From Escherichia phage phiWec177, in sequence record LC739532.1: a DNA stretch of 64,000 bases; one strand, written 5' to 3'. The position numbers were made by a program, and so were the translations under genes. Of this stretch, positions 3,182-29,545 are shown piece after piece. The notes below the pieces were generated by a model that saw nothing but the letters and a program-made list of their open reading frames with translations, was not told the DNA's origin and did no database searches. Within the stretch, counting starts at the first letter, position 1, and each line of letters starts with the position of its first letter.

Positions 3182-3423
3182 TGACTTATGTAATTTACTC
3201 CAAAACTGGATGCCCTCAGTGTGAGACTGCAAAGAATTTTGCGAAAGCTCGTGGTATTGACCATGTTGTGAGAATGTTAGGGCAGGATTATGAACTGCCA
3301 GACCTGATGGATATTGCACAGATGCCAGTTCGTCAGATGCCATTCATCATGAAAACTGACGGTCAAAACCTAAAACCTGTTGGAACGCTACAGAATTTTA
3401 TGACAGAGGTGAATAATGCTTAA
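3181..3423 (+). CDS. nrdH: Glutaredoxin-like protein (NrdH-like redoxin)
   Basis: 80 aa with CPQC redox motif near N-terminus; located inside nrd cluster. Confidence 0.7.
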   Translation: MTYVIYSKTGCPQCETAKNFAKARGIDHVVRMLGQDYELPDLMDIAQMPVRQMPFIMKTDGQNLKPVGTLQNFMTEVNNA

Positions 3424-3622
3424 ACGCCTTTGGGAAGGTTTGGTTGTTGATGCACCAGCTATTGTGATTGGTATGCTTGTTGTTAACCTATTTACTGATT
3501 TTGAACAAGGTTCATTGTTTGGAGCCATGTTACTATGGGTTATCTTTGAAATATTAGAGATACAGCTAGGCATCACTGAAAAACTAAGAAAACTCGTTTC
3601 AAAGTTTTCTAAAAAGATTTAA
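3416..3622 (+). CDS. Small hydrophobic membrane protein
   Basis: 68 aa, two hydrophobic helices by eye; overlaps nrdH stop. Confidence 0.4.
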   Translation: MLKRLWEGLVVDAPAIVIGMLVVNLFTDFEQGSLFGAMLLWVIFEILEIQLGITEKLRKLVSKFSKKI

Positions 3623-26852: not shown

Positions 26853-27101
26853 ATGGCAACTATCCGCGCCACTGTTAACGAATTTGGTTTTTACTCTCTG
26901 GATGTTAAATTTGACCTTGTAGGCACTGACAACGCCTTTGAAATGGTGAAAGGTCTTATCAGTCAGACCATCAAGGACTATAACCCCTCTAATGAGTTCT
27001 GGAAAGAAACAAAACAGGAAGTTCTTAAAGATGGTTACACTTTTCACTATTGGGGTGAAAAAATCGTCTCCCTGTACTACGACAAAGAAGGCACTAACTA
27101 A
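26853..27101 (+). CDS. Hypothetical small protein (last plus-strand gene before non-coding region)
   Basis: 82 aa ORF. Confidence 0.45.
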   Translation: MATIRATVNEFGFYSLDVKFDLVGTDNAFEMVKGLISQTIKDYNPSNEFWKETKQEVLKDGYTFHYWGEKIVSLYYDKEGTN

Positions 27102-27139
27102 ACACCGCAGCGGGGCTAAATAGCCCCAGATACCTGAAC

Positions 27140-27166
27140 AGCCCCTATTTAAAGGGGCTTTTTTAC
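27140..27166 (+). terminator. Rho-independent terminator (tandem hairpins)
   Basis: GGGGCT-aaat-AGCCCC then AGCCCCT-attta-AAGGGGCT followed by TTTTTT. Confidence 0.6.
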
Positions 27167-27340
27167 GTCTATTGAATTCTTATACAATCCCTTTCCCTCA
27201 CCTTCCTAGAATCTTATCAGACCTTAAAAGCAATAACTCTATAGTCTACTCTATAACCTCTTATCAAATCAACTAAGTGGCATTGTTACCAATCCCTTAA
27301 ATATAAGCCCATAACCCGAAAGGGAAGGGCAATCCCTTAA

Positions 27341-27430
27341 ACGCTCTATAACGCTCTATAACGCTCTATAACGCTCTATAACGCTCTATAACGCTCTATA
27401 ACGCTCTATAACGCTCTATAACGCTCTATA
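27341..27430. repeat. Perfect tandem repeat, 9 x 10 bp (ACGCTCTATA)
   Basis: Nine identical contiguous 10-mers seen directly; no spacers. Confidence 0.95.
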
Positions 27431-27599
27431 ACAGCCTTATCAACCTAACTTAAGCAATCATATTAACCCACTCTAAAAAGCCCTTTATAGAGCTTCTCAG
27501 AGCCTTAAAAGAATCTTATAAGGGTGTAAGCTTTATCGTCTCGTTAGTATTCTTGTGAATATCTAAAAAGGACTTGTTAGTGTCTTAAAAGTATGTTAT

Positions 27600-28260
27600 A
27601 GGGGCTATGAAGTTACGTAAAAGTAGCTTAAAAGTAGCTTAAAAGTTACGTAAATGCTAGCCCCCTTAACATTTTCTTAACAATTTCTTAACAATCCCTA
27701 CATAGTTATACTTTTAAGGCACTTGTTAGCAACTTGTTAGCCCCTTGTTAAATCTCTGTTAAGACCACGTAAAAGCCTTGTAAGAGTCTTTGACATAGCC
27801 TTAAAAGCTCCTGTAAAGCCCTATAAAGAGCTATCCATACAGTTGAGGGGTAAATACTAGGAAGAGACTTAAAAGAGCTTATAAAGAGCTATAGAGAGCT
27901 TTTAAGAGGTATGTTTAAGGAATCACTAGGGGTTGGTAACAATACCAATTAAGAGGGAAAGGGAACGATAAGACCAGAGATAGTGACCATGTTAATAGCT
28001 TGTTAAAAAGATTAAACACTTGTTAGGAACTTGTTAATTATCTTAACAAAATAACTCTTTAAAATTAACTTGTTAGCTCTTGTTAGGCATCTGTTAAGAT
28101 TCTGTAAAGACTATTCAGCACTTGTTAGAAAACTGTTACAACCTTGTTAGTTCTGTTAAGAAACTGTTAAGACCTTTGAAGAGTTGTTAAGAAGATGTTA
28201 GAACTGTTAAGAGATTGTTAAGGATATTTTAAAATTTTGCAAAGTACTTGTAAGGGAGCT
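27600..28260. repeat. Dense array of (C)TTGTTA(A/G)/CTGTTAAG heptamers and their complements at about 10-12 bp spacing
   Basis: More than 25 copies counted by eye, many at one-helical-turn spacing; also AAAAGTAGCTT x2 and TTCTTAACAAT x2 direct repeats. Confidence 0.8.
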
Positions 28261-28864
28261 GTTAAGGGCTACCAAGCAGATATACATCTTCTACAGATAT
28301 TTTTGAGTTCCTTCAAAGACCCTAAAAAATGACTTGATAGTCCTATTTTATAAAAATTTTAAGATTCTGAATAATTACCTATACAGTCTTTTAAAAATAC
28401 AGGTAGAAACAGGCTTATAAGATACCTTGTTAGTACCGTGTTAGACCTTGTGAGATAAGGCCTGTAAAGATATTCCTGTTAAGTTTGTTAAAACAGTCTA
28501 TATAGAGGCTTAGTAATACCTAGTGAACACCTATAGAGGGTATCATAGCTGACATAGAGATTAAGAGGTGTATAGGAGCTTCTAAGGGGGTGTAGAGAGA
28601 TGGTTAAGGTGATTGTATAGGCTGTTAAGAAGGTTTGTTAGAGGGCTAGTTAGAAGGGTTATACAGAGGGCTATTAAGACCACTAGATAGTTACTAAGAT
28701 ACTATATAGTACTATATAACTATATATATAGAGAGTAAGATTAAGAAGGCTGTTAAGAAGGATAGATATTTTATTCACATATGATGGTGACCCAGAGGTT
28801 GGGACAACCGATAAAATTTTATAAAAATTAAAAAGCCCCCAATTAAGGAGGCTCTTAAGATATT

Positions 28865-29545
28865 TTAAATCAGTGTTTCCAGAACTGTTTTTAGGGATGA
28901 CTTAGTTGTCTGATAAAAATGAGTGAATCCATTGTTGTTATCGAATATCTGCATCATGATATCATCTCCCTTGATTGGGTACACTCGGATATCATAGTGA
29001 AAACCATTAAAGACACAAGAACCACTACAGAATTCACTAAAGTCAGCCACTGAGATATACTCTTCGTGACCTGTGATTTTTATACAGACACCTTTACTCG
29101 GTCTCTTAGGTTTGATATCTTCCATAATAGACATACTCTGTCCACCAAGAGATACCATAGTGACCACTTTACGGTTCTGCTGTTTAACATACATTTCAAG
29201 TTTCTGCAAAGTATCTTTATAGAACGGATAAGACTCCTTAACAAAGATACCTTTTAGTGGCTCTTTACCATTCTTAACTTCTCTGATATGCCGTACTGAT
29301 AAGATAAGCTGCTCTAGTCTGTTAAGGCTTTCTTTGGATAATGCTTCTTGAACATCATTCCAGTCAAGTACCAAGTACTTTCTCTCTAATTCAAACTGTT
29401 TTTCCATATCTATCAAATCCTGAAAATACTTCTTAGTGATTTTTGACCACTCAGCAAAATGAATCTTTTTCTTCTTCCGAAGGAGAACCATATCTTTCAA
29501 GTTCATCCAATTCATCCTGCGAAGGTGTCCCGTAAGATTCTTCAT
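28865..29545 (-). CDS. Hypothetical protein
   Basis: 226 aa ORF, first gene of minus-strand block; start uncertain. Confidence 0.45.
   Translation of the reverse strand: MKNLTGHLRRMNWMNLKDMVLLRKKKKIHFAEWSKITKKYFQDLIDMEKQFELERKYLVLDWNDVQEALSKESLNRLEQLILSVRHIREVKNGKEPLKGIFVKESYPFYKDTLQKLEMYVKQQNRKVVTMVSLGGQSMSIMEDIKPKRPSKGVCIKITGHEEYISVADFSEFCSGSCVFNGFHYDIRVYPIKGDDIMMQIFDNNNGFTHFYQTTKSSLKTVLETLI

Follow-up and report, generated by a model that had tools for sequence, protein, structure and literature searches.

Short repeated motifs adjoin the terminase cut in several packaging sites, such as the R-sites of lambda cosB and the pacL/pacR boxes of SPP1, where 2-4 repeats are spread over ~100-200 bp and the ends are cohesive or headful. 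T7 has fixed ends and a short exact terminal repeat, and one heptamer recurs more than ten times on one strand of its junction: we counted 13 same-strand copies of CCTAAAG in ~450 bp, some within the 160-bp repeat and others next to it. Concatemers of T7-like phages have one repeat copy, and the second is synthesised (PMC10438801). Short direct terminal repeats (DTRs) have also been reported in Felix O1-like phages (Felixounavirus). That of UAB_Phi87 (608 bp) was established by Bal31 sensitivity and sequencing run-off (PMC4837284), that of UAB_69 has been described in print as short and direct (PMC11350853), and PhageTerm gave 581 bp in Pr103Blw (PMC8303462), as it gave 439 bp in the Kolesnikvirus SPARTY (PMC8928762). 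Short-read assemblies of DTR phages often collapse both end copies (PMC10438801). Here we analyse a stretch of 64,000 nucleotides of Escherichia phage phiWec177 (LC739532.1), called the window at its full length, in which a gene-free gap holds a dense array of a short heptamer, summarised as YTGTTAR. The locus shares with T7 the short exact terminal repeat, the fixed ends and the single heptamer repeated on one strand in and beside that repeat.

The terminal repeat

The gap is almost certainly the concatemer-junction region of a linear Felix O1-like genome, with the terminal repeat inside it. It is 100% identical to the gap of Escherichia phage phiWec172, 88-92% identical to that of ~200 Felixounavirus records and ~78-80% identical to that of Mooglevirus and Suspvirus; by this similarity the window belongs to Felixounavirus. 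Relatives carry an identical sequence at either end of their records, 581 bp long in vB_EcoM_D4 (D4), 613 bp in SeKF_63 and 401 bp in the Erwinia phage vEam_W_25, and in each phage the two copies are 100% identical. The copies of D4 and SeKF_63 map to the window with the same nucleotides as limits, beginning at 27660 (GCCCCCTTAACATTTTC...) and stopping at 28273 (...GTTAAGGGCTACC). A repeat_region labelled 'DTR' in the GenBank record of UAB_69 agrees with both limits within 2 nt. The records of NBSal004, GE_vB_7A, ECOH1, BPS15Q2, mistaenkt and pEP20 start or end at these boundaries or within ~15 nt of them; the first base of NBSal004 aligns to the left boundary and the record end of pEP20 to the right one. 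The boundary sequences are invariant in all 11 phages aligned. Both the record ends and the UAB_69 annotation indicate termini that are fixed, sequence-specific and not circularly permuted. Because the record ends and the annotated DTR of relatives fall on these positions, 27660-28273 is, by homology, a short exact DTR of 614 bp, and virion DNA is predicted to start with GCCCCCTTAAC... and to stop with ...GTTAAGGGCTACC, with the 614 bp at both ends.

The repeat itself is already known, being homologous to the terminal repeats of UAB_Phi87 and UAB_69. In UAB_Phi87, UAB_69, Pr103Blw, D4 and SeKF_63 the homologous element lies between the same two genes, is 569-618 bp long and has boundaries (GCCCCCTTAAC... 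and ...GTTAAGGGCTACC) identical to those of the window. The window differs from these phages only at the level of strains, by 11-bp units and a 22-23-bp palindromic insert that are present or missing, and by a nine-copy expansion of AACGCTCTAT in the left flank.

The true gap spans 27102-28864, and the longest open reading frames (ORFs) inside it are 31-34 aa. The original prediction, made from the letters of the window alone, had described a region without ORFs of at least 60 aa that began at 27440. The lack of such ORFs was borne out, the longest being 34 aa, and the interval named is gene-free, but 338 bp of the gap were omitted from it, including a 10-bp tandem array. The convergent gene blocks on which that prediction also relied are real in their orientation; what they represent, however, is the two physical ends of a linear genome. 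The blocks converge because the assembly collapsed the two repeat copies and so joined right-end genes (plus strand) to left-end genes (minus strand). In all annotated relatives the same interval is gene-free and has convergent terminators on either side. In Felixounavirus assemblies that have collapsed, the true ends are to be found at the convergent intergenic gap, and many public records could be re-oriented on this basis.

The heptamer array

TGTTAR, counted on both strands, occurs 32 times within 27575-28756, with 28 copies on the plus strand and 4 on the minus strand; the main forms of the heptamer are CTTGTTAG and CTGTTAAG(A). The original prediction had put the number at more than 25 and had proposed a comparison with shuffled sequence. 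In 2000 dinucleotide-preserving shuffles of 27440-28864 the motif was found 3.25±1.76 times, with a maximum of 10, so that both the count and the enrichment stand. The spacing is even further from expectation: 17 neighbour spacings of 9-12 bp were observed against 0.03 expected, and 13 of exactly 11 bp against 0.01 (dinucleotide shuffles). The repeat at 27660-28273 contains 24 of the 32 copies, whereas every other 614-bp window of the 64 kb has at most 5. Over the whole window there are 149 copies against 123±10 expected, which is background frequency outside the gap. The 10-12 bp spacing that had been noted at 28060-28215 corresponds to the densest part of the array, where motifs and near-motifs follow one another at 9-11 bp steps (28071-28216). 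This stretch is almost continuous. It belongs to the main phased array (27988-28222), which is the best-conserved part of the repeat and the only part that can be aligned to Erwinia phages. The direct repeats named earlier were recovered by Tandem Repeats Finder, with 2.6 units of TAAAAGTAGCT at 27618-27646 and 2.8 units of CTTAACAATTT at 27665-27695; the latter are three inverted copies of the heptamer.

The junction is made up of the following features, from left to right (window coordinates; a slash between two sequences at the right boundary marks the cut).

26853-27101, plus strand: left bordering gene, 82 aa, phrog_4559
27140-27165, plus strand: intrinsic terminator ending the plus-strand block (right end of the physical genome), with a stem at 27140-27159 followed by a T-run; the homologous terminator is annotated in AYO145A and Mordin
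27237-27432, plus strand: left-flank CTCTATA heptamers, 11 of the 13 copies in the window, including the tandem array of AACGCTCTAT
27610-27659, plus strand: 11-bp repeats AAGTTACGTAA and TAAAAGTAGCT adjoining the left cut; their copy number differs between phages
27660-28273, no strand: direct terminal repeat by homology, 614 bp, present as a single collapsed copy, with the left cut before 27660 and the right cut after 28273; placed by D4, SeKF_63, UAB_69 and other record ends, with an experimental DTR in UAB_Phi87
27665-27695, minus strand: three inverted, outward-pointing heptamers TTCTTAACAAT, spaced 11 bp apart, at the repeat's left edge, forming an imperfect inverted repeat with the right edge
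27721-27763, plus strand: four direct heptamers at exact 11-bp spacing (CTTGTTAG twice, CTTGTTAA, CTGTTAAG); units are gained or lost among relatives as 11-bp blocks
27764-27987, plus strand: central TGTTA-poor section with the related motifs CTTAAAAG, CTGTAAAG and CTATAAAG; contains a 23-bp palindromic insertion at 27927-27949
27988-28222, plus strand: main array of phased copies; of its 18 TGTTA, 17 lie on the plus strand and the one at 28044 is inverted, and near-copies accompany them, mostly at 9-11 bp steps
28258-28273, plus strand: last outward-pointing copy and right cut, GCTGTTAAGGGCTACC/AAGCAGATATACA; the Erwinia phage boundary ...GCGGCCAC/TAAGTAGATATACA is homologous
28274-28400, plus strand: highly conserved unique sequence beyond the right cut; a patch at 28340-28380 has 80% A+T; mean pairwise identity 0.84-0.92 across three genera
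28428-28760, plus strand: right-flank copies, seven TGTTAR, a 24-bp repeat at 28620-28679 and TATAGAG at 28501, 28532 and 28727, the last motif mirroring CTCTATA of the left flank
28831-28856, minus strand: intrinsic terminator ending the minus-strand block (left end of the physical genome); homologues are annotated in AYO145A and Mordin
28865-29545, minus strand: right bordering gene, 226 aa, phrog_4330

Two symmetries relate the sides of the repeat. When the left boundary is reverse-complemented, it can be aligned to the right one (arms 27663-27694 and 28237-28268), scoring 38 where shuffles score 17.3±3.4. Because the two boundaries align as an inverted repeat, both cuts lie 6-8 nt beyond an outward-pointing copy of TGTTAAGGG, and arrays are found within and beside the repeat. 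This first symmetry is suggestive, given that the shuffle control leaves the motif shared by the two edges in play. The second heptamer is mirrored as well, with CTCTATA in the left flank only (27237-27432) and TATAGAG in the right flank only (28501-28733) in 11 of 11 phages compared. When read inward from either genome end, the repeat comes first and is followed by TATAGAG copies.

To the extent that other phages could be compared, the array is conserved. When 13 phages of four genera were compared, 19-24 TGTTAR with an unchanged strand bias were counted in the densest 600 bp of each, a stretch that coincides with the repeat in the phages in which both copies are kept (D4, SeKF_63 and vEam_W_25). 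The 401-bp repeat of vEam_W_25 can barely be aligned to that of the window, yet it contains 19 TGTTA, seven of them at exactly 11 bp, and its right boundary is homologous to the window's. In the alignment of 11 phages, 79% of the core columns are invariant compared to 52% of the other columns of the repeat, and the mean pairwise identity is 0.91 in the cores and 0.79 elsewhere in the repeat; only 4 of 613 circular shifts of the core mask reached the observed value. The multi-base indels inside the repeat measure 11, 11, 11, 22 and 23 bp without exception, sizes that, judged from the alignment, preserve the helical phase. The contrast is with the AACGCTCTAT array and the units that adjoin the repeat on its left, whose copy number varies freely.

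A scan of IMG/VR for three phased TGTTAR gave, among the matches listed, no sign of the motif outside the Ounavirinae. Apart from contigs of Felix O1-like and Erwinia phages, the matches listed were mostly isolated and apparently due to chance. Two other dense arrays among them, both intergenic and both in metagenomic viral contigs (L041, 13900-14200; L112, 6700-6990), were set aside as unrelated: they are palindromic (TTAACATGTTAA and TGTGTTAAT) and share only the letters TGTTAA with the motif. They are probably iteron or operator arrays in their own right.

The feature is real, strongly non-random and conserved, and it is not a new kind of element. Its internal heptamer architecture appears to be undescribed. 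The papers that we searched give the existence and the length of the repeat and do not describe this architecture, much subscription literature and theses lying outside the search. The gap is not mentioned in the paper on the Felix O1 genome or in the Danish coliphage survey, and the available part of the PhageMaP study of Felixounavirus Bas63 holds no result for this intergenic region.

Possible roles of the heptamers

The explanation that we favour, at roughly even confidence, combines the junction with binding of the heptamers by a packaging protein. Within it, the claim that the heptamers serve terminase recognition or the positioning of the cuts is held more tentatively, a little short of even. 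By analogy with T7-type phages, replication would give concatemers with one repeat copy between genomes (PMC5000459, PMC10438801). The ~30 copies of YTGTTAR would then be sites for an oligomeric packaging protein, a small-terminase-like recognition factor; the heptamers are co-oriented, phased at 11 bp, concentrated in the repeat and present as outward copies at both of its edges. Subunits of this protein would contact successive helical turns, as has been proposed for small-terminase rings, whose DNA-binding motifs lie about one helical turn apart and for which wrapping of DNA has been proposed (PMC4737164). Coating or wrapping the repeat in replicated concatemers, the protein would mark it as the junction. 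The outward terminal copies, perhaps together with the mirrored flank motifs and the conserved sequence to the right, may position the large terminase (43674-45275), which would cut between 27659 and 27660 and between 28273 and 28274, each time 6-8 nt beyond an outward TGTTAAGGG. Synthesis would then supply the second repeat copy, as it does in T7-type phages. On its sequence, 28274-28400 is a candidate cis-element for the recognition of the end.

The large terminase belongs to phrog_979 and matches Pfam Terminase_6N/6C, and the terminase of UAB_Phi87 has been placed in a Felix O1-like DTR cluster (PMC4837284). The ORF listed for it in the window, 43659-45275, starts with TTG at 43659. GGAGG at 43663-43667 and ATG at 43674 match the 533-aa annotation of D4, and the true start is probably 43674.

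Among the options offered by the original prediction, a packaging site is the only one that gained support, mainly through the terminal repeat seen in relatives. The cooperative binding array that it proposed fits the 11-bp phasing, the conservation of cores over spacers and the indels in 11-bp units, but no binding protein was identified. The T7 CCTAAAG junction is the nearest mechanistic precedent, with several differences. In T7, 9 of the 13 heptamers are in the flanks, they have a single orientation and their closest spacings are 13 bp, whereas in the window most copies lie inside a repeat that is four times longer, are phased at 11 bp, are inverted at one edge and are accompanied by a mirrored second heptamer. 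The T7 junction has promoters (phiOL is annotated at 405), the window junction is insulated by convergent terminators, and the window's large terminase is a Terminase_6N/6C protein. The window departs from the repeats that adjoin the cut in cosB and pac sites: its ~30 copies extend across more than 600 bp, the two cuts are separated by 614 bp, and a small terminase is not recognisable.

It should be noted that several points weigh against the packaging explanation. The ends of phiWec177 are inferred from boundaries conserved in relatives. The analogy with T7 supplies no mechanism, since the heptamers of T7 have, as far as we know, no agreed role themselves. The array spans ~600 bp, which is far beyond the contact range of one terminase ring. 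No small terminase or other DNA-binding protein was recognisable in searches of PHROGs and Pfam or in the Pharokka annotation of D4, a result that may reflect divergence rather than absence. By position, a small terminase could be sought only in the 66-aa ORF at 43452-43652, which lies just upstream of the large-terminase gene; it belongs to phrog_4397, which has no annotated function, and it has no Pfam match. Finally, the isolated DNA-binding domain of the SPP1/SF6 small terminase shows little preference for the box repeats of the pac site (PMC4737164), and therefore the repeats of a packaging site need not be recognition elements.

The length of the array can also be read differently. In an explanation that we judge unlikely, the repeats would act as telomere-like ends: a phage or host protein would polymerise on the arrays of both repeats of the incoming genome, pairing them to form circles or concatemers or shielding them from exonucleases. 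Co-oriented, phased sites suit a filament, the array is much longer than a single terminase ring needs, and it fills the whole repeat, the part that is present at both ends and is the substrate of end-to-end recombination; DTRs are, moreover, generally credited with circularisation and protection (PMC5000459; PMC10438801). However, no candidate protein was found, and outward copies exactly at both cuts, with motif copies continuing in the flanks, fit the cutting of ends better than their pairing. Telomere-like and packaging roles are not mutually exclusive and may coexist. A more elaborate form, which we consider quite unlikely, is an undescribed phage 'telomere' system. Here a filament of a putative small unannotated protein on ~25 phased sites per repeat would pair or protect the ends after ejection and would later serve as a ruler that sets cuts 614 bp apart, with CTCTATA/TATAGAG as a second recognition layer.

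If the heptamers were instead iteron-like initiator sites beside an A+T-rich unwinding patch, the locus would be a replication origin, as the original prediction had also suggested. Like iteron origins, it has many phased direct repeats in a gene-free, A+T-rich region, with 80% A+T patches (40 bp) at 28340-28380 and 28700-28740 and a local change of GC skew across the gap. Yet the unit, a 7-bp core spaced at 11 bp, is much shorter and its ~30 copies far more numerous than the 17-22 bp repeats of iterons, none of iteron size being present. There is a single DnaA box, with one mismatch, at 28771, and no cluster of them; no initiator gene lies nearby, the bordering genes lacking initiator, helicase or primase signatures. 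GC skew over the window tracks gene orientation, and the position of the array is, to the base, that of the terminal repeat. We regard an origin as very unlikely, and the same degree of doubt applies to functionless repeats that slippage and unequal recombination would produce and maintain at a genome end devoid of genes and prone to recombine. Copy-number variation is indeed frequent at this locus (AACGCTCTAT in 9 copies versus 1-2, the 22/33-bp expansion of phage FO1a, 11-bp units gained and lost), but the cores are more conserved than the spacers, Erwinia phages keep the density, the strand bias and the phasing in a repeat that can otherwise barely be aligned, and the orientation of the motif is fixed relative to both cuts. 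A structured non-coding RNA or a site for partition or nucleoid organisation, both raised in the original prediction, is extremely improbable. On the plus strand the repeat folds more stably than shuffles do (z = -3.5), but this is due to pairing between the array on the right and the inverted copies of the left edge; for the minus strand z is -1.6. The repeat has no Rfam match (at E≤1, only a sub-threshold Phe-leader match on the minus-strand terminator was returned), a sigma-70 promoter scan gave 8 against 6.8±2.7 and hence no excess, the region is bracketed by convergent terminators, and indels of 11-23 bp are tolerated. No support emerged for a partition or nucleoid-organising centre, for which no direct test was made and partition genes were not searched for; we take the phage to be virulent, with no known plasmid state, and this counts against the partition reading. 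The heptamer was also considered as a phage promoter element and rejected, as it is at background frequency outside the gap and is not found upstream of genes.

Outside T7, the recognition of a junction and the making of two precise cuts hundreds of bp apart are poorly understood. Felix O1-like phages are widely used for typing of Salmonella and E. coli, in biocontrol and in therapy. A conserved phased array of ~30 copies offers a DNA bait for finding the recognition factor, and it provides defined cis-elements for engineering, as packaging signals for transducing particles or as safe insertion sites.

Flanking elements and other observations

The genes around the gap belong to phrog_4559, 4725, 4330 and 4343, none of which has a known function. 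In D4, the minus-strand block ends in lysis genes.

In the left flank, Tandem Repeats Finder delimited a perfect 10-bp tandem array of AACGCTCTAT with 9.3 units at 27340-27432. It is expanded in this strain only, ten related phages having 1-2 units at the same place, and from these comparisons it behaves as a variable-number tandem repeat. The last 20 bp before the left cut, GTTACGTAAATGCTA, are conserved between phages. In FO1a (L003, ~3300-3590) a long run of 22/33-bp units, GGGGCTTAAAAGTTACGTAAAAG and ...GTTACTTCAAAGTAACG..., lies directly left of the repeat boundary, where the window has only about four 11-bp units.

A palindromic mini-element of 22-23 bp, with the core TTGGTAACAATACCAA, differs between phages in its insertion site and its orientation. 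It is at 27927-27949 in the window and at the same place in Andreotti, with a partial copy at 27274-27297. In UAB_69, SUSP2 and SeKF_63 it is found at the equivalent of 28069, reversed, and the other loci recorded are L004 (~2368), L017 (~1404) and L009/L010. It has the look of a tiny hairpin that is mobile or prone to recombination.

The last 9 bases of the vEam_W_25 record (PP079183.1; L014, 1993-2001), AGATCGGAA, stand directly after the terminal repeat. They look like a remnant of an Illumina adapter, a small record error that marks the true physical end of the DNA.

Elsewhere in the window, an ORF at 36049-37464 encodes a 471-aa product assigned to phrog_850, annotated as an RNA-binding protein. 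The Bas63 study places a Ro60-like gp130 directly upstream of the Bas63 tRNA genes. The ORF at 36049-37464 is just upstream of a cluster of 24 tRNA genes, interspersed with small ORFs, at 37630-43229.

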